From positions 1,466-65,465 of the IMG/VR virus record IMGVR_UViG_3300031277_000001: DNA of 64,000 bases. One strand, given 5' to 3'. Both the position numbers and the translations under genes were made by a program. Below, piece by piece: positions 37,017 through 64,000 of this stretch. Numbering within the stretch: the stretch's first letter is position 1; every line of letters starts with the position of its first letter. The DNA comes from a virus (lineage: Duplodnaviria > Caudoviricetes). A model generated the notes under the pieces. That model had not been told where the DNA came from. It saw only the letters and a program-made list of their open reading frames with translations, and did not search any database.

Positions 37017-38637
37017 TTATTATCTCATCCTCATCTTTCAAGCAATCTTCAAACAACGTGCCAAGGAAGTCCTCGTCCTTGGCGTCTCTCCCATCAATAA
37101 TCTTGGTGAGTACCTCCTTCTTCTTGTCAAGCAATTTGATGATCTTGTTTTCAATAGTATCGTCAGCAATGAGATAATAGATATTGACACACTGGGTCTG
37201 TCCTATCCTATGACAGCGATCGCCCGCTTGGTCGAGATCAGCATTGGTCCAAGGCAACTCCAGAAAAGCAACAGATGATGCAGATGTCAACGTGATCCCC
37301 ACTCCTGCAGCGACCATCTGTCCTATGAACAACTTAGTACTAGGATCATGTTGAAACTTGTTGATCCTCTTCTGTCGCTCCTCGGCAGGAGTACTCCCAT
37401 CAATTCGCACACAGTGTCCCTCGAACTCGCGTTCTACATCATCCAAGACGTTGATGTGAATCCCAAATACTACAAGTTTCTGCCCTGTCGAGAGAAAATC
37501 ACGTATCCACCGAAGAACAGAATTCCTCTTCGCAAGATATGCAAGCTGCTTCAATCTCTCTACTTGATTCTGAGCTTGAATACCTCTCTTTGCGATGTTC
37601 TCCTTCACCCACTCCTTGAACTTCTCTGAGGCGTCACGATAAGCCTCCATCTCAACAGCATCACACTCGAGACGAACGAGTGACTTCAACTTCTCGGGGA
37701 GGTCTTTGAGAACGTTGACCTTCTCTCTTCGAATCATCACGGGGGCAACAATCTCTCGAAGTTCATCTTGATTTGTGGCTCCCTTGAAAGTCCACCCAAA
37801 CCCGTTGTACTTGGGATCACAATAGCGATGCAAGTAACTCCACTGATTAGGAAACAACGAAGGTGCAACGAGATTCAAGACAGTAAAGAACTCAGAAGGG
37901 TAGTTCTTGATAGGTGTTCCCGACAAGAACACCTTGTGAGGGACAGGCTTGGCGATATGAACAAACGACTTAGTCCTGAGAGCCTTGCTGTTAGACACAT
38001 ACTGAATCTCATCTCCTATAATCGTCTGGAAGGGGATCTCCATAAGGATCTCCTCCCAGTCCTTCAAGATGTCATAGTTAATGACATAGAACTTCCTCTC
38101 CTTCTTCAAACTATGAGCCTTACGCGAGGAAAAGATGTACGTATCTGTCTTCTTGATTCCCAACCACTTAAGAGCTTCTTCAATCCACACAAACTTGACT
38201 GTCGCAGGGCACACAATCAAAGCGGGGAAACTGTCTTCATGAAGATTCAAGTACCCTATAGCCTGGATAGTCTTTCCCAAGCCCATCTCATCTGCAATAA
38301 TCCCAACACCAGAGCGACCTTCAAGAAAACGTACGCCTTCTTTTTGAAAGGAAAAGAGACCCTCAATCTTGGTCTCATCAATCACCACTTCCTTCTTCTC
38401 CTCTTCTTTAGATTCAAGGAGCTTAGCAGCAGCGGGAGTGAAGTCAAACCCAAAATCTTGCAAGTACCTCAAATTACTCCTCGTGACAGGAACAACCCAC
38501 ACTTTCCTCTCCATGTTCCACATTCTCCCCACGAGATTCACCTTGACCAGCTCCAAGACACTATAAAACGCCTTTCTATCATCTGATCGAAACTGCACGA
38601 GAAGAACAGAACCGTCATAGTCCACCATCTTAATCAT
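36985..38637 (-). CDS. SNF2-family helicase
   Basis: FQKEGV, ADEMGLGKTIQ, IVCPA, NYD, LSGTP..N, RR.K..VL.DLP, G.GITL, QA.DR.HRIGQ. Confidence 0.9.
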   Translation of the reverse strand: MIKMVDYDGSVLLVQFRSDDRKAFYSVLELVKVNLVGRMWNMERKVWVVPVTRSNLRYLQDFGFDFTPAAAKLLESKEEEKKEVVIDETKIEGLFSFQKEGVRFLEGRSGVGIIADEMGLGKTIQAIGYLNLHEDSFPALIVCPATVKFVWIEEALKWLGIKKTDTYIFSSRKAHSLKKERKFYVINYDILKDWEEILMEIPFQTIIGDEIQYVSNSKALRTKSFVHIAKPVPHKVFLSGTPIKNYPSEFFTVLNLVAPSLFPNQWSYLHRYCDPKYNGFGWTFKGATNQDELREIVAPVMIRREKVNVLKDLPEKLKSLVRLECDAVEMEAYRDASEKFKEWVKENIAKRGIQAQNQVERLKQLAYLAKRNSVLRWIRDFLSTGQKLVVFGIHINVLDDVEREFEGHCVRIDGSTPAEERQKRINKFQHDPSTKLFIGQMVAAGVGITLTSASSVAFLELPWTNADLDQAGDRCHRIGQTQCVNIYYLIADDTIENKIIKLLDKKKEVLTKIIDGRDAKDEDFLGTLFEDCLKDEDEIINEGERDRCEY

Positions 38638-39521
38638 AAGTGCTCCACCATCCAGCGAACTTCTCGAACTATATGATCAGGAAGTTTCGCAGGATCCTTG
38701 TCTGTCTCAAGATCAACCACGTGAGTATGCACTCCCAGGCTTCCAATGGCTGATGCATACTTCTCTGCTCTCTTCTGAGCATCGGGCTCAGAATCAAACA
38801 AGAAGACGACCTTCTTGTATGTTGTCAAGAGACGAAGCTGTTGATCCGTCAACTGAGTACCGAGTCCTGCTACAAAGTTGTCCCCCATGCGCCACACATC
38901 AAAAGGACCTTCAACAACCGCTACCCAGTCCTTCTTGCAATTATCAAGGTTGTACAAGACGTACTTAGGATTCATCACACTGCGCTCTACTGACAAGGTC
39001 TTGTAGCGAATCTTCTGCTTCTCAGTGATGTCTCTGCTAGTGAAAGAGACAACTTGTCCATGAAAAATGATGGGTATTATGATCCTAAGACGATACTCCC
39101 CCGCCAAGCCTGTCCCTCTAACTTGATACTTCCTCTCAATATAATCGGGATCAAACCCACGAGAGATCAAATATTTTCTATGATACTTCTCCAAAGACTC
39201 TCCAGGGAGGCTCACCGAACTTGATCTTGGTTCCTTCTTCTTGTTCAAAATACTATGAACAAGTGTTGCAGCCGAGTAGTCGCGAATAATACTCTCAGCT
39301 TGAGTCCAGGAAATGTGCAAGAGAGATACAATCACCTCCTCGACAGGGTGTCCTCCACACTTCCAGCATGAGTAGTACCCTCCCGAGAGATTGAATCCCC
39401 CGTGATTTGAATGATCAGAACACAAAGGACATCGTATTGCAACCCACCCGGGAGAAACGTTCTCTCCTTCCTCAAAGTAAGGAACACCATTGTCTCTAAG
39501 GAACGCCCTGGCATCAAACAT
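38634..39521 (-). CDS. DNA primase (Zn finger plus TOPRIM)
   Basis: CPLC.DH...SCWKCG, IIPI, VEGPFD, FD.E, KDP. Confidence 0.85.
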   Translation of the reverse strand: MFDARAFLRDNGVPYFEEGENVSPGWVAIRCPLCSDHSNHGGFNLSGGYYSCWKCGGHPVEEVIVSLLHISWTQAESIIRDYSAATLVHSILNKKKEPRSSSVSLPGESLEKYHRKYLISRGFDPDYIERKYQVRGTGLAGEYRLRIIIPIIFHGQVVSFTSRDITEKQKIRYKTLSVERSVMNPKYVLYNLDNCKKDWVAVVEGPFDVWRMGDNFVAGLGTQLTDQQLRLLTTYKKVVFLFDSEPDAQKRAEKYASAIGSLGVHTHVVDLETDKDPAKLPDHIVREVRWMVEHL

Positions 39522-54100: not shown

Positions 54101-54143
54101 TCAGTGTACCTCCTCGGTATGTATAGACTTGCAACTGCAAGTA

Positions 54144-54238
54144 TGGGAGCGACGGGACTCGAACCCGCATCGCGCGCGGAGTGCACAAATACACCACAGT
54201 ATACCGCCGCCCGAGTGTTACCACTACACCACGCTCCC
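54144..54238 (-). ncRNA. tRNA-like RNA with expanded anticodon arm (95 nt)
   Basis: Acceptor GGGAGCG/CGCTCCC, D arm GTGT-AGTGGTA-ACAC, T arm GCGGG-TTCGAGT-CCCGT; anticodon region about 41 nt with no canonical 7-nt loop. Confidence 0.75.
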
Positions 54239-54390
54239 AAGCTGGCCGCCCTGTGGTACTCCGGATCTTTGGAGAGGGCGGCCTTAGAAATACCTCATAG
54301 AGAAAACATGTAGTAGGGACCATTACTTTGCGGCCCCCATATCAGACCTCCTTTCTACTCTACATACAGGACCATCAAGCGATCCCGCAA

Positions 54391-56916: not shown

Positions 56917-57159
56917 CTAGAGAGGAGCTCCTGTGAAGGGATCACCTCCAGCAGCTATGAACTCCTCTAAGTTGTTGAGACCAATGGCGTCGGGGGAGAT
57001 CTCCACTTCCTTGCCCCCCTCATCAACTACAGTCTCCTCCCCTGTGACCTCAGGCTCGTTGTTGTCGACAGGAACACCTTCTTCATCAACAACATGGCAG
57101 TCATGCGACCACCAGCAGTCCACGCAGTTGCATCCGACGTCATGTTCCACGAGAATCAC
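56917..57159 (-). CDS. Acidic hypothetical protein
   Basis: GTGA overlap; CNCVDC. Confidence 0.5.
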   Translation of the reverse strand: MILVEHDVGCNCVDCWWSHDCHVVDEEGVPVDNNEPEVTGEETVVDEGGKEVEISPDAIGLNNLEEFIAAGGDPFTGAPL

Positions 57160-57509
57160 CTCCCCTCGTTAGGGGCCAGTAGACTCCGTGAGGAACGGAG
57201 ATAAGCAATCATCTCTTTTTCCTCATCGGAAGTGTTCCGACCCATGTTTGCAATTTCTTCCCGAGCCCAGGTTATCGCATCGATGTCCTCATCGAAGATG
57301 TAAGCTGACTTGAACAGTGAGCATGTCTCTCGATTGAAAGGACACTCAAAGAGACGTGAGACCCGGCACTCGATGACTCCGGCATAAAGATTTTCTTCGT
57401 TCTTGATGGCAACAGGACGAATGTGCCCCTGACCCAAGAAGAGGTCTGCCTTCACGATCATGATCTTGATCTCATGCGGAGCCTCCTCGCAGCTCTTGAT
57501 TCTTTCCAT
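57156..57509 (-). CDS. Hypothetical protein
   Basis: 117 aa ORF, GGAGGTA SD. Confidence 0.6.
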   Translation of the reverse strand: MERIKSCEEAPHEIKIMIVKADLFLGQGHIRPVAIKNEENLYAGVIECRVSRLFECPFNRETCSLFKSAYIFDEDIDAITWAREEIANMGRNTSDEEKEMIAYLRSSRSLLAPNEGR

Positions 57510-57673
57510 TCATACCTCCTCGTTGATATTACTTGCAGCTCCAGAGACGCCCGGGAGTGACGCGGGGGACACCCCCTCCACGCACACGCCATTTCGCTCG
57601 CGGACGTCATTGGAGCTGTACGCCTACTACCCTGTCGCTTCCCTCGGCGTCAGCTCATGAATGAAGATACAAC

Positions 57674-58024
57674 TTAAGACTTCGAGTTTCTGCAGTAAGG
57701 TCTGAGATACTCTATAAGAGTATTGTTCGCATCATCATTCTCAAAGAGGTCAATCTTCTTGACAGCCCCTTCCATGATGCTGTTGAGACGTTCTCGTGAC
57801 GCAGGGGTCCTCTCTTCCTCGGGCAGACTGTTCCAAGCCTCCCTACGGAAGCCTACTAAGATAGCGTTGAACGTGTGCTTCGTCTGCTTCATGTTCTTCT
57901 GCTCGTTGGACATGTGAGACTCGTCCACGCTCTCACCCGGAGCAGGATTCTGGAGACCCTTGTCAAGAGATGCGAGAACGATGGCGTCGATGTCGACAGG
58001 ATAGGTTAGCATTGAGATTAACAT
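57674..58024 (-). CDS. Hypothetical protein
   Basis: 116 aa ORF. Confidence 0.55.
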   Translation of the reverse strand: MLISMLTYPVDIDAIVLASLDKGLQNPAPGESVDESHMSNEQKNMKQTKHTFNAILVGFRREAWNSLPEEERTPASRERLNSIMEGAVKKIDLFENDDANNTLIEYLRPYCRNSKS

Positions 58025-58206
58025 GACGCACCCCCCTTCACAGAGACCATCTTCTTGAGCTCCGCGTCGAGGAACTCCTTGACCTCGGCGGGAGTCTTCT
58101 TTGACCAGGCCCTATCACAAAGGGGCTTCACTTGTGTCATGAAGTCGAAGCCCTTCTCGCGGGCCGTGGTCAGGAAGTCTACCATGACTTGTAGTTTTGT
58201 GTTCAT
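58018..58206 (-). CDS. Hypothetical protein
   Basis: 62 aa ORF, GGAGGTGA SD. Confidence 0.6.
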   Translation of the reverse strand: MNTKLQVMVDFLTTAREKGFDFMTQVKPLCDRAWSKKTPAEVKEFLDAELKKMVSVKGGASC

Positions 58207-58257
58207 GTTTCACCTCCTCAAGGTTGTAAAGAACTGTGGGACTGACTCAGATGATGA

Positions 58258-58482
58258 TTAGCCTAACACCCCCGCGTTGTCACCAGCACTCCAGCAGGTA
58301 CGTCTCTCAAAACTGAACATCTGCTGCTTCTTGTTACGAACAGCTTCTCTCAACTTCTTGAGATGCTCAGGAGAGGCCTGCATCGTGATCATCGGAGCCG
58401 TGGCGGGTGTACGATGTATCTTGACTTTTGGTTGAGGTCTTTCTTCTATGACCTCTTCAAATATAGTGACCTCTTGAATCAT
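58258..58482 (-). CDS. Hypothetical protein
   Basis: ATGA overlap, ggaggtg SD. Confidence 0.55.
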   Translation of the reverse strand: MIQEVTIFEEVIEERPQPKVKIHRTPATAPMITMQASPEHLKKLREAVRNKKQQMFSFERRTCWSAGDNAGVLG

Positions 58483-58673
58483 GAGAGCACCTCCTTCAAG
58501 CGCTCCTCAAGAGCAGGACGGATGCAGTCCAGATGAAAGTTGTCGTAGCCGGGAAGCCTGTTCTTGGCTATGAAGCGATTCATCAAGAAAGACTCTCCAG
58601 GATTGATGGACTCGTGGCAGTAGCGACACTCGCGCCGCCCCTTGGCCTTCTCGAGAGTGATGTTGATTAGCAT
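58479..58673 (-). CDS. Small zinc-finger protein (PARP-type CxxC...HxxC-like)
   Basis: A.GRRECRYCHESI.PGE...FHLDC; GGAGGTAC SD. Confidence 0.6.
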   Translation of the reverse strand: MLINITLEKAKGRRECRYCHESINPGESFLMNRFIAKNRLPGYDNFHLDCIRPALEERLKEVLS

Positions 58674-58686
58674 TTGTACCTCCTCC

Positions 58687-59166
58687 TTATTTTCTGTTCA
58701 TTACCGCAAGTACATTCTTGGTGTAGAACAGATTTCGAGACCAATAGCCATATACACAACGAGTCCCTTCTCGTGAAGGATCACCTGTGTCGTGTATCAC
58801 ACCATCAACAACAGCAACCAGATGCTTAGATAAGCAGACGATCAACCTACCTTCCTGAGGCAATTCTTCTCTTTTGAGATGCACTCTACAGCCCTTTCCT
58901 ATCTGCATAGTAGGAAACCACAAGAAACCAAGTGAGTTCATGTAATCGTGAAACCACTTCCTCCTCGTATATACACCCTTAGAAGCATCTTTTAACTTTC
59001 TGCTCTTTCTGGTCTTCCGTTGAGTTGAACACTTTGAAGAGAGAAACTCAAATACGTCTTTGTAGTCTTGCTCTGTTGCTATAGCTATGGCACGGGAGAC
59101 ACAGTCACCGGACATTTTCTTATATCCAGCAGCCTCGCGTCCTCCGTCATCATAGACAAACTCCAT
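58687..59166 (-). CDS. Conserved phage protein (GDCV.RAIAIA...H...V.DG.I.DT)
   Basis: Cys/His/Asp arrangement reminiscent of papain-like folds; GGAGGTAC SD. Confidence 0.65.
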   Translation of the reverse strand: MEFVYDDGGREAAGYKKMSGDCVSRAIAIATEQDYKDVFEFLSSKCSTQRKTRKSRKLKDASKGVYTRRKWFHDYMNSLGFLWFPTMQIGKGCRVHLKREELPQEGRLIVCLSKHLVAVVDGVIHDTGDPSREGTRCVYGYWSRNLFYTKNVLAVMNRK

Positions 59167-59272
59167 ACCGTACCTCCTCATGTAAGGTTGAGCGGGAAGC
59201 GGAGGGGAGGTACCGACCTCCGCCCCCGCTCCGTGCGGGCTTTCACCGCACTGGCCTTGCCCTTACTCCTTG

Positions 59273-59734
59273 TCAGAAAATGTTTATCGTGCCCTTCACC
59301 TGGATGTAGAACTCCGTGAAGGCTCCCTCCACGTTCCGCAACGACAAGTCAGACACGACAGCGTACGTCATGGCCGGGTGTATGCAGTAGTGCCTCACCC
59401 CTATCTCCAGTGAGTTCCCTATCCTGAGTCCTGCGTTGAATCCGTACAGCATCTCCGCGGGAGTACAGGAAGGTATGCCCTGAGAATTGCTCCAGTCAGT
59501 GAGGAGGAAGGGGATCTTGACAGAGGCTCCCACAAACACCGTGTCCAACAAGACGACCTCGGTAGCAAAGTCTGTGAATAGCCCAAAGGGTATCTCACTC
59601 AAGACGTCAGGGTTGTACGTCACGAAACCCGACGACATTCCCCCCACCTCTACCTTGAAGTTGACGTCGAGCACGTGATCGGCGTATGCCGATACTCCCA
59701 AGATAAACATGAACACAACTAACAGCTTCTTCAT
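59273..59734 (-). CDS. Secreted putative outer-membrane beta-barrel-like protein
   Basis: Signal peptide MKKLLVVFMFILGVSAYA, alternating amphipathic strands, C-terminal Phe. Confidence 0.55.
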   Translation of the reverse strand: MKKLLVVFMFILGVSAYADHVLDVNFKVEVGGMSSGFVTYNPDVLSEIPFGLFTDFATEVVLLDTVFVGASVKIPFLLTDWSNSQGIPSCTPAEMLYGFNAGLRIGNSLEIGVRHYCIHPAMTYAVVSDLSLRNVEGAFTEFYIQVKGTINIF

Positions 59735-59759
59735 ACTAATGTCCTCCTCAATCAAGATG

Positions 59760-60023
59760 TTATAGAGAGAATCTTATCGATTCCGCTTGATTCTGCAACA
59801 TCATAGCAGTAAAAATAAAACCTTGTCGCTGCGCGATATCCGCGTCGCGCTCGAGTTCCTGGATGTCCAGTAACTTCCGGATGTGAGACACCTTCCCCAC
59901 TTCAACTTCGTGGATCTTCTCGGAGATGGTCTTGGCAATTCTCTCGAGAGCTTCGGGAGGAAGCTCTTCGAGGAGCTCGTCGAACAGCATCCTCAAGATG
60001 CCCTTGCTGGTTTCATAATCCAT
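59760..60023 (-). CDS. Hypothetical protein
   Basis: 87 aa ORF, GGAGGTAC SD. Confidence 0.6.
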   Translation of the reverse strand: MDYETSKGILRMLFDELLEELPPEALERIAKTISEKIHEVEVGKVSHIRKLLDIQELERDADIAQRQGFIFTAMMLQNQAESIRFSL

Positions 60024-60203
60024 ACTGTACCTCCTGAGCTCTTCAGCTCCTGCTGCGCTTCTCTTACATGTTAGGCGGCTCCAGGTTGACCTACCCGTCC
60101 CTACAGTCTACTGGAGGAGAAGCGCATGAGGAGCCGGTCGCCCGGAGGCGACAGCTCTTGCCGTGGTTGGATCAACGGTGACACGGCAGACCGGCTAGAC
60201 GAA

Positions 60204-60422
60204 CTACTCGTCGTCTTCGAGATTGAGTTCAGGCTCCTCGCAATGCTCCACGAGTGTCTGGAGGAGATGATTGTAGTCGCCCTTCTTGCACTCGTCCAGG
60301 ACTTCCTTGATCTCCTCAGGAGTCCATCCTTCCTTCCTGGCCTGCCTCTGGAACGCTCCCATGAGAGAAAAGGCGTTTCCATCGAGACCCTCGAGTTGGA
60401 GCTTCACTTTCTTTGTAGTCAT
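60204..60422 (-). CDS. Conserved small phage protein (L.G.DGNAF..MG...GDY..LL)
   Basis: ATG 60422, GGAGGTAC SD; recurrent phage motif. Confidence 0.7.
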   Translation of the reverse strand: MTTKKVKLQLEGLDGNAFSLMGAFQRQARKEGWTPEEIKEVLDECKKGDYNHLLQTLVEHCEEPELNLEDDE

Positions 60423-60621
60423 GTTGTACCTCCGTGACCTTAGTGATCGCTGCTTCGCGTATAACATATATTATAATAGAAGCAACTTATTAGTCGCGCC
60501 CGCCAGTGTCGGACTGGCATCCGAGGCTATCATCTCGAGCGGACCGCCGCTGCGCGAAGAAAAAGGGGTAGCCTCTACGCGCCGGACTCTCACGAGTCAG
60601 GCTGCGCACTTTGGTGAGTTG

Positions 60622-60834
60622 TCATGCTGTGTAGATGTGGAATCCTTTGCCGTCTCTGTAGAATTCTACCAAGACCAGCTTACCTTCAAGTACCCACTTC
60701 TCGACCAGAAACCCCTGCTCGAGATCATACACTTGATAGTAACAAGAACCAGTCAAGTTCTTCTCAACACGAAGCGATCTGAACATGTTCTGACTCTCGT
60801 AAAAACTGGCCTCTGTAATGTTTGCCTTTGCCAT
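60622..60834 (-). CDS. Small early protein, cassette 3
   Basis: 70 aa, GGAGGTA SD; enclosed by inverted repeat 60565-60584/60856-60875. Confidence 0.7.
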   Translation of the reverse strand: MAKANITEASFYESQNMFRSLRVEKNLTGSCYYQVYDLEQGFLVEKWVLEGKLVLVEFYRDGKGFHIYTA

Positions 60835-60977
60835 GATATACCTCCACGCGCGTGTCGGCGCGTAGAAGCCACCCCGGTAGATCTTGCTGTGAACTTACCC
60901 GACGATTTCTCGTCACCCCTTGTCGATGAGGTACTTGACGCGCCGGACTACCGTGTGAGTAGTCAGCGGCGTGAGTA

Positions 60978-61184
60978 TCAGATACCCAGTTCAGTTAATT
61001 TCTGCTTGTACTCTTCCTCGGTGCTGAAGCGAAGTACGAAGTTCATCCCATACAAGGAACTTTCATGCTTCTTCGCCTCTGTTTGAGTAATGTTTCCAAG
61101 CGCTGTGTAGTAAGGTTTTCCACGAGATTGCATTAACTGCGGATTGCGTCTTTCTTTGATGTACCAGTACTTTGCCTTAGCCAT
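60978..61184 (-). CDS. Small early protein, cassette 2
   Basis: 68 aa, GGAGGTAC SD; enclosed by inverted repeat 60925-60945/61205-61225. Confidence 0.7.
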   Translation of the reverse strand: MAKAKYWYIKERRNPQLMQSRGKPYYTALGNITQTEAKKHESSLYGMNFVLRFSTEEEYKQKLTELGI

Positions 61185-61275
61185 GTTGTACCTCCTGCGC
61201 CTTTCAGCGCGTCAAGTACCTCATCTGCGTTCCAGTCCTCAACGCGCTGGACTGTTGCCAGCCAGCGGCGGTAGG

Positions 61276-61455
61276 TTAGTTTTCTTCCAAAACTTCAGTT
61301 AGGATACCTTCGACTTCAATTGCGTTTCCGTTTTCATCGTGTGATTGCGCACGCATCCGCTCACCGATAAAATCGGTGATTTCTTTTCCGTTGATCGTAT
61401 CCTGAGAAATTGTGCCGGTTGTTTCGTTGTCGAGTAATACGGTCCAAGTTTTCAT
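61276..61455 (-). CDS. Small acidic early protein (59 aa), cassette 1
   Basis: Manual translation MKTWTVLLDNETTGTISQDTINGKEITDFIGERMRAQSHDENGNAIEVEGILTEVLEEN; GGAGGTAC SD; enclosed by inverted repeat 61229-61249/61475-61495. Confidence 0.7.
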   Translation of the reverse strand: MKTWTVLLDNETTGTISQDTINGKEITDFIGERMRAQSHDENGNAIEVEGILTEVLEEN

Positions 61456-61714
61456 AGTGTACCTCCGTGCGCCTCAGCGCGTGGAGGACTAGAACTTCCT
61501 TCTCTATACGGCTTCCCGAAGCCCTACGGCAATCGGTCTTGCGGTTTGTGCCGGGCTGGTAATTTCGCCCCGCCTACTCGCGCTCGCCCCCTATGTGTTG
61601 CAGTTTCCTGCTCCGTCAGCCGGACTTTTGTTCGCTTACTTCCGCCCTACTTTAGGCGCTTTTTCGGCTATCCCTTTTGGGGAACGTGCCCGATAACTTT
61701 TTGTATATATACAT

Positions 61715-61743
61715 AATATAGTACAGATTTTGTCTAATGTCAA
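61715..61743 (-). promoter_or_regulatory. Strong sigma70-type early promoter
   Basis: TTGACA-17 nt-TATATT with AT-rich UP-like tract upstream. Confidence 0.8.
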
Positions 61744-61818
61744 GTATTCTTTTGAAAAGTTTTGTTTATTTTTCAGATTTTCACGGGAACCACTATACAG
61801 GTTTTAAGTGAAACACCT

Positions 61819-61860
61819 AAAAAAGGGGGCGGGGGACAGAAACTCTGCCCACCCACCCTT
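61819..61860 (-). terminator. Rho-independent terminator after the lysis-like operon
   Basis: GC-rich hairpin (gggtgggtgggcag...ctgtcccccgcccc) followed by a T tract. Confidence 0.65.
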
Positions 61861-61897
61861 GGTCCGAGCGAGGAGGAATCCTCACCGTATTGAGATA

Positions 61898-62164
61898 CTA
61901 CTCGTAGAGGTACACCATACCGGCGCTCAGAGTGTCAACCTTGATTGCGATGGGATCCATCAACGGGAACTCAAATGGATCCACGAAGTTGGACCCCCAA
62001 GCCACCGAGTGGAACACCGCGTTGCCCTCGAGGTCCGTCAGAATGCACTGACTCCCGCCCGCCCCGCCAACGCACACCCAGCGGACCTTCTTGAATACTC
62101 TCTCCGCGGTCACGTCGTCCTCCGCCGTGAGCACCCACACGTTCTTGTACTTCGATACTGCCAT
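61898..62164 (-). CDS. Hypothetical protein
   Basis: 88 aa, aggag SD. Confidence 0.65.
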   Translation of the reverse strand: MAVSKYKNVWVLTAEDDVTAERVFKKVRWVCVGGAGGSQCILTDLEGNAVFHSVAWGSNFVDPFEFPLMDPIAIKVDTLSAGMVYLYE

Positions 62165-62182
62165 GTCGTTCTCCTTCCTGTG

Positions 62183-62650
62183 TTAGTGTATCGTGCCGTT
62201 CGCAATCAGCACCACCACGATCGTGGCGGCTACACCGAGTGCGGCACCAAGCCCTGCTCCTATCCCGAGATCCCGCCAGAAGTGATTCTGGTCAGGCACC
62301 ACGTTCGGGAAGTTCATGGTGGGGAGCCTCACGCGGAAGCCGAGTGAGGCCAAACTGACGTCCACCTCGGAGTCCACGGGCACCACAGTGACGGTCTTCC
62401 CCGTGACGAGACACACGTAGTCGAACTTGGAGAAGAGCAATCCGGAGTGCTCGACTTCGTCGTACTTGATGACGAAGTCTACGAGTGTATCTCGGGACAC
62501 CGACGCTATCCACCTGCTGGCCTCCTCCCTCGTCATGGGGACGTACTTCTGACTGGCCTCCGGACTACTCGGAAGCGGGGTCCCCTCCTGTGCCACCACT
62601 GGCAGTACCAGGAGTAGGAGCAGGACTATGCTTGCGATCAACAACTTCAT
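62183..62650 (-). CDS. Signal-peptide protein with C-terminal TM (spanin-like)
   Basis: MKLLIASIVLLLLLVLPVVA; C-terminal GIGAGLGAALGVAATIVVVLI. Confidence 0.6.
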   Translation of the reverse strand: MKLLIASIVLLLLLVLPVVAQEGTPLPSSPEASQKYVPMTREEASRWIASVSRDTLVDFVIKYDEVEHSGLLFSKFDYVCLVTGKTVTVVPVDSEVDVSLASLGFRVRLPTMNFPNVVPDQNHFWRDLGIGAGLGAALGVAATIVVVLIANGTIH

Positions 62651-62993
62651 GCTTTACCTCCACGCAGATGATCTGCTTGTCCTTGTCGTAGCCCACGGCG
62701 GTGACGTCGATGGCGTCGATCCCCTTGGGCATCTTTATGGTCTGGACGTTGTCCGTACCGGGGACGACCACCTTGATCTTGTTGGCGTCCGTGACTAACC
62801 AGTCCAGTTTCTTCACAGGCTTCGGGAGCAGCGTGTCGAAGACGACCTTGAGCTTCCTGTAGATCTTGATACCAGCTATGGTCGCCGCGACAGCCCCCAG
62901 GGCCCCGAGGAGGAGCTTCCAGTACTTGCCTACGAACTCCCCGACCTTCTTGAAGAATGCTCCCACTTTCTCGAAGAACTCCTTGACTTTCAT
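62565..62993 (-). CDS. N-terminal TM protein (possible spanin partner)
   Basis: Amphipathic helix plus TM YWKLLLGALGAVAATIAGI; overlaps the downstream gene. Confidence 0.6.
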   Translation of the reverse strand: MKVKEFFEKVGAFFKKVGEFVGKYWKLLLGALGAVAATIAGIKIYRKLKVVFDTLLPKPVKKLDWLVTDANKIKVVVPGTDNVQTIKMPKGIDAIDVTAVGYDKDKQIICVEVKHEVVDRKHSPAPTPGTASGGTGGDPASE

Positions 62994-62996
62994 AGG

Positions 62997-63428
62997 TCAC
63001 ACCCTCCCCAACTTCTGCGTCACCTCGGAGACCGTGGCGTACCCTATGAACGCGGAGCACATCTCGGCGACGCCCGCCAGGCCGGTCTCCGGCCGCGCCA
63101 GGAGCACCACCAGGGCGATCTCCAGGGCCACGACGATCGCCACGAGCTTCAGCACCCTCCCGATCTCAAGCCTGCCATGCTCGTCCTGTACCACTCCGGC
63201 CGACTCCGGTAAGGGGTCCTCGTTGCGTGCCGGACCCTGGATTGCCTGACCTACCTGACCCCCCGCTACGGGCACCAGGAAGGCGGCGACGATGAGCAGT
63301 AACTGAGGGAGATTCGCTCCCATGAGTGCACCGACGTTGGCCACCACTACCGCGGCAACGAACATCACGATCATCATCACGATCCCACTGGACTTGTCGT
63401 TCCAGCCGTCCTTGAAAAGTTCTTTCAT
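62997..63428 (-). CDS. Holin-like multi-TM membrane protein
   Basis: Four hydrophobic segments in two similar halves; follows the peptidase. Confidence 0.55.
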   Translation of the reverse strand: MKELFKDGWNDKSSGIVMMIVMFVAAVVVANVGALMGANLPQLLLIVAAFLVPVAGGQVGQAIQGPARNEDPLPESAGVVQDEHGRLEIGRVLKLVAIVVALEIALVVLLARPETGLAGVAEMCSAFIGYATVSEVTQKLGRV

Positions 63429-63439
63429 GATCCACCTCC

Positions 63440-64000
63440 TCACTGTGGTTTATAATAGATCACAGTCTGCTTGACTGTCGAGAACTCGTATTTCGTGAAG
63501 AGTTGCAAGAAGCCGTTGCCCCTCCACTCCGACTTGCGTCCCGGCCAGGAGTCCTTGATTCGCAAGCACTGAGCTTCATCATCAACAATACCGGCCGAGA
63601 TGTAGTGCCCGGGAATGAGCATCCCCACCGAGTTTCCGTCCAGGATCGCCTGGTACACCTGGTCCCAAGATCTCCCCCACTGCCACTGTGCCTTGACGTC
63701 AAACATCATCTTGGCTACCCTGACGTGGAGTTCCATGTAGCGGTTCTCCATCACGGTGTCACCATGGAGCCCCGGGATGATCTTTTGCCACTCCTCCATG
63801 TTGAAGGGGTCCGAGAAGCACAACATCACGACGTCGTCCAACTGCGGTCCCCGCTTCCACCCCGGGAAGATCTTCGTCAGGGATTCCTCGCCGGGGAGAT
63901 CCGGACCCAGGAGATTCGCACAGTTGTTCACGACCTCCTCGGCCCCGCAGCTCTCCAGGTACCCGCGGGAGTGCACCTTGTCCAGGGTGACCTGAGACAC
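63440..64000 (-). CDS. C39-like cysteine peptidase (candidate endolysin), 5' end probably outside the window
   Basis: ESCG ... PGHYI ... IKDSW catalytic Cys-His-Asp pattern. Confidence 0.6.
   Translation of the reverse strand: MSQVTLDKVHSRGYLESCGAEEVVNNCANLLGPDLPGEESLTKIFPGWKRGPQLDDVVMLCFSDPFNMEEWQKIIPGLHGDTVMENRYMELHVRVAKMMFDVKAQWQWGRSWDQVYQAILDGNSVGMLIPGHYISAGIVDDEAQCLRIKDSWPGRKSEWRGNGFLQLFTKYEFSTVKQTVIYYKPQ

Follow-up and report, generated by a model that had tools for sequence, protein, structure and literature searches.

Small early genes of an uncultured salt-marsh phage enclosed one by one in long inverted repeats: an array of candidate gene-spanning RNA stems

The window analyzed in this work is the whole stretch of 64,000 nucleotides (nt) that covers positions 1,466 to 65,465 of the IMG/VR record IMGVR_UViG_3300031277_000001, which belongs to an uncultured phage. 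On its minus strand, three consecutive small open reading frames (ORFs) are each placed inside their own inverted repeat of 20-21 base pairs (bp), and these units are designated here cassettes 1 to 3. The array was first described in a sequence-only reading, and all the coordinates given there for the three repeats hold. The long-range RNA pairing of the arms is very probably functional in itself. The view favored by the sequence and the folding models is that this pairing acts at the RNA level and that the inverted repeats operate in the early mRNA. The role of the stems is more tentative: with a probability of about 0.45, they may process and insulate each cistron as stems of the RNase III type, together with a fold-back similar to that of the hok mRNA, and would influence the cleavage, stability and translation of each message.

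Anatomy of the three cassettes

The elements of the array, in the direction of transcription, are the following.

61475-61495, minus strand: 5' arm of cassette 1, GUUCUAGUCCUCCACGCGCUG, containing CCUCC, an anti-Shine-Dalgarno (anti-SD) sequence (inverted repeat, folding)
61276-61455, minus strand: ORF of cassette 1, 59 amino acids (aa), acidic, orphan; its Shine-Dalgarno sequence (SD) GGAGGT lies at 61461-61466 (ORF list)
61250-61263, minus strand: small hairpin of cassette 1 with a GCAA tetraloop, directly adjoining the 3' arm (folding)
61229-61249, minus strand: 3' arm of cassette 1, with pair probabilities of 0.95-1.00 except at the single C-U mismatch
61205-61225, minus strand: 5' arm of cassette 2, with local pairing to AGGUAC and the AUG of its own start region (inverted repeat, folding)
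60978-61184, minus strand: ORF of cassette 2, 68 aa, basic, with one known homologue, P0002, at 56% identity (ORF list, protein search)
60946-60964, minus strand: small hairpin of cassette 2, adjoining the 3' arm (folding)
60925-60945, minus strand: 3' arm of cassette 2 (inverted repeat, folding)
60876-60924, minus strand: 49-nt spacer between cassettes 2 and 3, with a 5-bp hairpin capped by a GAAA tetraloop, GACGA-GAAA-UCGUC (folding)
60856-60875, minus strand: 5' arm of cassette 3, with a 12-bp local hairpin over its own SD (inverted repeat, folding)
60622-60834, minus strand: ORF of cassette 3, 70 aa, orphan (ORF list)
60585-60598, minus strand: small hairpin of cassette 3 with a GUGA tetraloop, adjoining the 3' arm (folding)
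60565-60584, minus strand: 3' arm of cassette 3 (inverted repeat, folding)
60557-60564, minus strand: U tract UUUUUCUU, immediately past the last helix (sequence)

Each helix encloses exactly one ORF, and the loops inside the helices are protein-coding cistrons of 225-271 nt. The SD GGAGGT is found 5-6 nt ahead of the ATG in all three ORFs. As indicated in the sequence-only reading, the 5' arms all end in ACGCGCYG, with GCGC...GGAGGTA after them. The 3' arms all begin within the 12-mer AGTCCRGCGCGT, which has three exact copies in the window, all of them at 3' arms. The inner 8 bp of the helices (ACGCGCYG with CRGCGCGU) are invariant and the outer 12-13 bp are cassette-specific; the outer arm ends are unlike (GTTCTAG, GATGAGG and GGGGTGG) and have no common core site. 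The distance from the end of the 5' arm to the ATG is 19, 20 and 21 nt in the three cassettes, and that from the stop codon to the start of the 3' arm is 26, 32 and 37 nt. Cassettes 1 and 2 are separated by 3 nt, a spacing also pointed out before, and cassettes 2 and 3 by 49 nt.

The 5' elements align among themselves with scores of 29-43 and the 3' elements with scores of 30-36. Compared with each other, the two types of element score only 17-20 within the same cassette and 15-23 over all cross-type comparisons, so neither is a copy of the other. Two of the three junction hairpins carry GNRA loops (GCAA and GUGA), and there is no spacer between the small hairpin and the 3' arm. The encoded proteins are hydrophilic (GRAVY of -0.59, -0.92 and -0.23) and contain no membrane segment, the maximum Kyte-Doolittle 19-residue mean being 0.86. 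The last arm is followed by TTTTTCTT, and the U tract that had been noted after the last helix is present. No canonical local terminator hairpin was found before the U tract at 60557-60564.

The array had been described as lying right after an early promoter. A promoter-like site is indeed present, matching 11 of 12 consensus positions, but it is located ~210 nt upstream of the first arm, which makes that description a loose one. The consensus scan gave one such site near the array, at 61743-61715, and none between the cassettes.

61715-61743, minus strand: sigma-70-like promoter, TTGACA, 17-nt spacer, TATATT (11/12 consensus matches), at the head of the transcription unit
61496-61708, minus strand: leader of ~213 nt from the predicted transcript start to the first arm, with a minimum free energy (MFE) of -65.8 kcal/mol and a modest z-score of -1.86

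The leader has no match in Rfam, and the stretch 60300-62000 has none at E values up to 1.

Statistics and covariation of the helices

Helices were counted if they comprised 20 bp or more, with 18 or more Watson-Crick pairs, around a loop of 100-1000 nt. Exactly three helices in the complete record of 65,465 bp reach this threshold, and they are those of the three cassettes. The dinucleotide shuffles of the record (n=100) gave a mean of 0.22 helices, and only one of the 100 reached three. Two other long-range complementarities of the minus strand are below the threshold. The first, at 722-1146, lies inside a large ORF; its arms of 19 nt form 18 Watson-Crick pairs around a loop of 387 nt. The second, at 37938-39118, has 20 nt with 17 Watson-Crick and two G-U pairs and a 1141-nt loop.

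When the arms of the three paralogous cassettes are aligned, 61 of the 62 cells form a standard pair, and at 10 of the 21 pairs both partners differ among the cassettes. In control alignments with the 3' partner displaced by 1-3 columns, only 35-46% of the cells remain paired, and none of 500 column shuffles matched the observed values of pairing and covariation. The cells that are not Watson-Crick are four G-U/U-G wobbles and one C-U mismatch, the same counts from which the sequence-only reading had argued for RNA pairing, and the compensatory changes together with the presence of all helices in the MFE fold point the same way. There is no A-C cell on the mRNA strand, and the four wobbles would read A-C on the opposite strand. 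RNA-level helices are favored because of this sense-strand wobble bias, the complementarity of the 5' arm to its own start region, the fixed offsets to the signals for translation, the presence of only one promoter and the GNRA loops of the junction hairpins.

Folding of the transcript and access to the Shine-Dalgarno sequence

All folding results are thermodynamic predictions and cover RNAs of 270-1180 nt. For the stretch 60540-61720 (1181 nt), the MFE fold contains all three long-range helices, and in folds of single cassettes the long-range pair probabilities are 0.90-1.00. The predicted long-range state beats the best fold with pair spans of up to 120 nt by 16.9, 22.1 and 20.7 kcal/mol in cassettes 1, 2 and 3, respectively.

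The 5' element alone is predicted to form a hairpin of -16 to -22 kcal/mol that places the arm over the SD or the start codon in all three cassettes. The local hairpins proposed earlier for cassettes 1 and 3 fold as claimed. In cassette 1, CCUCC/GGAGG and GCGC/GCGC form, and UAGUCCUCC pairs with GGAGG and ACUA; the hairpin of cassette 3 has 12 bp, GCUUCUACGCGC with GCGCGUGGAGGU. In cassette 2, GUACUU pairs with AGGUAC and AUG with CAU. The 3' element alone has a predicted stability of -19 to -22 kcal/mol.

The 5' arms were also compared with versions in which only the outer 12-13 nt of the arm were shuffled, 500 times per cassette. A local hairpin as good as the native one or better arose in 0.018, 0.004 and 0.010 of the shuffles, and an equal occlusion of the SD in 0.028, 0.034 and 0.000. 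The 3' arms, shuffled likewise in their outer part, showed no signal (0.56, 0.18 and 0.44). Since the local hairpin exceeds the shuffles, the models indicate that the 5' arm is a real anti-ribosome-binding-site element, selected for pairing both with the start region of its own gene and with the 3' arm.

Folding of the growing transcript, in 30-nt steps, gave the order anticipated by the sequence-only reading, in which the local hairpin comes first and the long-range helix after it, in each of the three cassettes. Until the 3' arm is present, the SD pairs with the 5' arm at every length, with 5/5, 3/5 and 5/5 SD bases in cassettes 1, 2 and 3. With the 3' arm included, the MFE of the growing chain shows 20-21 long-range pairs, and the SD is no longer paired with the 5' arm. 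The SD occlusion and the arm switch that had been postulated are thus reproduced in silico, while the subsequent opening of the SD is not. In the full-length MFE fold the SD remains paired at 5/5, 5/5 and 4/5 bases, and the probability that GGAGG is unpaired is, for the full-length versus the truncated RNA, 0.007 versus 0.007 in cassette 1, 0.24 versus 0.40 in cassette 2 and 0.27 versus 0.008 in cassette 3. The SD of cassette 1 re-pairs with ACCU-A-CCG right after the stop codon, and the closing helix is extended past the three-way junction. In these models, full-length cassette 1 looks closed, as the hok mRNA, and not open.

Relatives and gene exchange

The search of 5.8 billion proteins returned the proteins of the window itself and one homologue, P0002, which is 56% identical to the cassette 2 protein and is encoded on a 1725-nt ENA contig. 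The cassette proteins are otherwise orphans. Within the viral_contigs collection there are no relatives of the three cassette proteins, nor of the neighboring DUF932 protein, and the region matched no GenBank phage in a distant blastn. The motif scan of viral_contigs had a single match per row and, among the matches listed, no site with more than 18 of 20 pairable arm positions. None of the 120 sites among the matches listed for metagenome_contigs, and none of the 120 among those listed for genome_contigs, exceeded 18 of 21. The matches of the three scans are chance hits in GC-rich DNA, and relatives could still exist. The best phrog_1933 matches, L001 and L002, were considered as relatives and rejected, as they are AT-rich unrelated phages without the array.

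Three further salt-marsh runs contain short contigs that are 95-99% identical to parts of the region. One contig of run X3 (250 nt, depth 2.2) matches 61658-61468, that is, the leader, the 5' arm and the GCGC hairpin, with three differences. Past 61467-61468 this contig continues with GGAGGT and then with a different gene start that is absent from the window. This sequence suggests that one gene may take the place of another behind an unchanged arm, the break falling at the conserved inner junction. The proposal that the conserved boundaries make the genes exchangeable cassettes has therefore one direct hint, the X3 contig, and a parallel in the family described below. Inverted cassette orientations, which had been named as a sign of DNA inversion, were not seen in the DNA contigs, and these contigs showed no cassette joints either.

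A second family of cassettes with the same layout

The downstream gene at 58687-59181 (minus strand, 164 aa) belongs to phrog_3754, a very widespread family, and has 293 relatives in viral_contigs. Its protein has a GDC...H...D pattern, from which a small cysteine peptidase-like fold is presumed. Flanks were compared by ungapped helix scoring in a set of 125 flank pairs drawn from two queries, since RNAduplex was uninformative and returned long gapped duplexes. Of the phrog_3754 homologues with usable flanks, five (in L130, L123, L116, L068 and L062) are bracketed by helices of 25-35 bp. Their cognate helix scores are 55-81, against a maximum of 32 among 125 non-cognate flank pairs, and the scores of the antisense strand are lower. 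Two abutting cassettes are found in each of L068 and L130. In L062, L116 and L123, promoter-like sequences of the extended -10 type are found 40-60 nt upstream, and transcription from them would include the arms.

The conserved motif CTNTTTGACATTGTGAAT, which precedes the 5' arm, is present in 92 stretches of viral_contigs. At 25 of its 93 sites a partner lies downstream, and the resulting helix has 24-31 bp and a loop of 353-830 nt. Under symmetric scoring there are 24 unique cassettes, with 41 G-T versus 18 A-C mismatches, a set in which L420 is probably spurious and one row of L068 pairs the arms of neighboring cassettes. The members (L062, L068, L116, L123, L130 and L380-L469) have CCGTGG(G/C)CC at the inner end of the helix, and those inspected by hand have a recurring mismatch, mostly U-U, ~12-13 bp from it. 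Arms and genes reassort independently in this family. Different genes are found in the same arms (L062/L403/L442 and L380/L412), and the same gene is found in different arms (L068, L394, L417 and L425).

The CTNTTTGACATTGTGAAT family has no sequence in common with the present array and has the same layout. The complementarity between arm and start region is not consistently beyond shuffles in this family; the inner CCGUGG often pairs with CCAUGG at the start codon. The genes of the family have no close match in cultured phages, where three distant matches of phrog_3754 were the only ones found. Two other loci of viral_contigs have dense families of short repeats in both orientations and many spurious long-range helices in the scan: L008, with ~20 copies of a motif related to AAATTAGTGGGGCAACG, and L046, with tandem blocks of TTAAGGTTGTTAAGG.

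Proposed mechanism and alternative explanations

In the favored model, the host RNA polymerase would start at the sigma-70-like promoter and produce one transcript with the three small genes. Each newly made 5' arm would first fold onto the SD and start region of its own gene, and this metastable hairpin would keep ribosomes off the nascent message. The 3' arm, once made, would capture the 5' arm in the 20-21 bp helix and the cistron would become a closed loop. The most likely role of these duplexes, of two turns, would be to process and insulate the message as stems of the RNase III type. Each cistron would be released by a cut in the outer, variable half of its helix, and the GC-rich inner 8 bp, stacked with the small hairpin, would keep both ends of the mRNA clamped and protected after the cut. 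The fold-back would also set the timing and level of translation in the manner of the tac/fbi pairing of hok. The ideal substrate of Escherichia coli RNase III is, according to PMC3867540, a helix of 22 bp and two turns. The cassette helices have 20-21 bp with 0-1 non-standard pairs each and are consistent with the length of an RNase III substrate. Because 20-21 near-perfect pairs exceed what a switch needs and match this 22-bp substrate, processing stems are favored. The sequences suggest that the common inner junctions probably act as gene-swap points as well, where recombination may exchange the enclosed gene while the arms are kept. The diversity of the arms would ensure that a 5' arm pairs with the 3' arm of the same cassette, and would spare the DNA long direct repeats.

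Several observations weigh against this model. No orthologous array, in which the covariation of the arms could be followed as proposed in the sequence-only reading, was found among the matches listed for the viral, metagenome and genome collections. The covariation observed comes from only three paralogous cassettes of one phage, and the evidence for a gene swap is a single 250-nt contig with a depth of 2.2. No match to RNase III or to a double-stranded RNA-binding domain (dsRBD) was found on the record, which is ~70% complete. The accessibility of the SD shifts inconsistently between the two states, and the translational part of the model is therefore weak. Both end elements are stable alone (-16 to -22 kcal/mol for the 5' element and -19 to -22 kcal/mol for the 3' element), so the long-range state could be kinetically slow. 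Furthermore, hairpins of single-stranded DNA also tolerate G-T wobbles, and the strand asymmetry does not strictly exclude a DNA hairpin for this reason.

The most probable alternative, and the main model of the sequence-only reading, is a pure gating of translation without cleavage, in which the SD would be hidden until the 3' arm captures the 5' arm and only complete transcripts would be translated. The complementarity of the 5' arm to the ribosome-binding site, which is above chance, the exchange of partners exactly when the 3' arm is made and the increase of the unpaired probability of the cassette 3 SD from 0.008 to 0.27 are all in its favor. Gating by itself is nevertheless unlikely, given that the SD is not more open in cassette 1 (0.007 in both states) or in cassette 2 (0.24 full-length against 0.40 truncated), that the MFE fold re-pairs it elsewhere in all three cassettes and that a helix of 8-12 bp would be enough for such a switch, 20-21 near-perfect pairs being more than needed. 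A function at the DNA level, with the arms as halves of cassette-specific hairpin recombination sites or as boundary motifs of the integron or PeSL type and with no role in RNA, would agree with the X3 variant, in which the gene is swapped at a conserved junction, and with the reassortment of arms and genes in the CTNTTTGACATTGTGAAT family. PeSL motifs of T4-type phages mediate modular shuffling and the formation of mini-circles, as stated in PMC2839356. On the other hand, neither a tyrosine nor a serine recombinase (PF00589, PF00239) has a match on the record, which is ~70% complete, the outer arm ends have no core site in common, the break of X3 is at the inner junction instead of the outer arm end, and no joints or inversions were seen in the contigs that were inspected. 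A function purely in double-stranded DNA does not predict the complementarity between arm and SD, and the sense-strand G-U bias and the GNRA loops would also be left unexplained, which makes a DNA-level role rather improbable.

The two remaining explanations have far less in their favor. Three hok-like type I toxin-antitoxin modules, with stable and inert full-length mRNAs activated by 3' trimming, would follow the same RNA logic, in which PMC9841398 includes a 5'-3' long-distance stem, a metastable 5' hairpin and a SD that is sequestered at full length. They are very improbable here: the proteins are hydrophilic and without a membrane segment (maximum 19-residue hydropathy of 0.86), a consensus scan of the plus strand at 57000-64000 gave no antisense promoter-like site, and the three genes are different and lie in tandem behind a single promoter. 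Chance matches or functionless leftovers of duplication would be compatible with the presence of the exact family in one phage only, with no orthologous conservation. They can scarcely account for three helices against a shuffle mean of 0.22, for helices that each bracket one ORF at fixed offsets, for ten compensatory pairs, or for 5' and 3' elements that are not copies of each other (cross-type scores of 15-23 against 29-43 within type).

Other readings of the RNA were discarded. A split hammerhead core at the three-way junction was sought by eye, and no CUGANGA/GAAA core is common to the three cassettes. A tRNA-like or RNase P reading of the small hairpin and the 3' arm does not agree with loops of 4-5 nt, the lack of a T-loop and a helix of 21 bp. 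The possibly circularized mRNA suggested in the sequence-only reading has no support, and the record gave no match to RtcB or to an RNA ligase family.

Source record and surroundings of the array

The source record has 65,465 bp, nearly all of it within the window, is classified as linear by IMG/VR and is ~70% complete according to the CheckV estimate. Among the runs listed, only one, a salt-marsh metagenome, contains the complete stretch, and none that contains it is an RNA run. All the large genes of the record are on the minus strand, and the proteins encoded include a family A DNA polymerase fused to UDG, a SNF2 helicase, a DnaB-like helicase, a large terminase of the gpA type and a portal protein. 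The sole tRNA gene of the window is a tRNA-Tyr (GTA) of 97 nt at 54143-54239 on the minus strand (ARAGORN and Rfam). Upstream of the promoter-like site lies one further element.

~61825-61860, minus strand: GC-rich inverted repeat followed by a T-run (seen in the sequence)

Downstream of the array, the minus-strand region 60425-60557, between the U tract and the next gene, is a structured RNA; for a stretch of 176 nt the MFE is -59.8 kcal/mol and the z-score only -0.97. Next, at ~60460-60495 (minus strand), an AT-rich sequence resembling a promoter precedes the phrog_1933 gene.

Relation to known systems and significance

Two large stems that flank the 23S and 16S rRNA are cleaved by RNase III, as described in PMC6582327. 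The array resembles these rrn leader-trailer stems in that a long-range helix of at least about two turns surrounds a whole functional unit and each successive unit has its own stem. It differs from them in enclosing protein-coding cistrons of 225-271 nt and in having a 5' strand that doubles as an anti-ribosome-binding-site element. The hok mRNA passes from a metastable 5' hairpin to a 5'-3' closure in which the SD is still sequestered (PMC9841398). With the hok/Sok fold-back of plasmid R1 (tac/fbi, ucb/dcb), the array has in common the long 5'-3' stem and, according to the folding models, the transient 5' hairpin. In contrast to hok/Sok, none of the proteins is a membrane toxin, an antisense promoter-like site is lacking, the three tandem genes are unrelated, and the stems have the length of RNase III substrates.

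Phages and integrons offer further comparisons. The RNase III sites of the T7 early region (R0.3 to R1.3) split a polycistronic transcript of the host polymerase into single-gene mRNAs with protective end stems. The array would likewise lie in an early polycistronic transcript, whereas the T7 sites are local hairpins between genes and the helices of the array span the gene. Integron attC sites are local hairpins at one end of the cassette, with a conserved core and a cognate integrase, and allow single genes to be exchanged. Cassette-specific imperfect inverted repeats and, if the genes of the array can indeed be swapped, exchangeable single genes are common to integron cassettes and the array, for which no core site and, on the record, no recombinase match was found. 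In the PeSL cassettes of T4-type phages, conserved regulatory motifs flank small non-essential early genes and act as recombination points for modular shuffling (PMC2839356). These motifs consist of a promoter and a terminator stem-loop in direct orientation between genes, unlike the array, which has one promoter, three genes and gene-spanning inverted repeats.

The literature search, which fell short of most subscription journals and supplementary files, yielded no description of gene-spanning stems around phage protein-coding genes. This agrees with the earlier statement that no such architecture had been described, although the hok tac/fbi pairing and the rRNA processing stems are close precedents. 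The parts are known from the rRNA stems, hok tac/fbi and PeSL shuffling; what appears to be new is that they are combined, and that arrays of protein genes are built in this way.

The recurrence of the layout in an unrelated family of viral contigs indicates that it is probably not a curiosity of one genome. A wider proposal, which is conceivable and still doubtful, is that enclosing a gene in a loop is a general way for phages to package accessory early genes as panhandle mRNAs. The helix would silence the nascent message, mark it for an RNase III excision that leaves the ends clamped, and provide standard junctions for swapping, the present array and the CTNTTTGACATTGTGAAT/CCGTGG family being independent inventions. 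The clamped ends would place the stop codon beside the start, possibly allowing the recycling of ribosomes. If the stems work as proposed, they would constitute a modular RNA format for single genes that joins processing similar to that of the rRNA stems, translation control similar to that of hok and plug-in exchange similar to that of PeSL. Protein-coding messages would then join the substrates of long-range RNase III stems, and synthetic biology would gain a natural insulator design. Such a format would also help to explain how orphan early genes are shuffled between phages and yet are expressed predictably.

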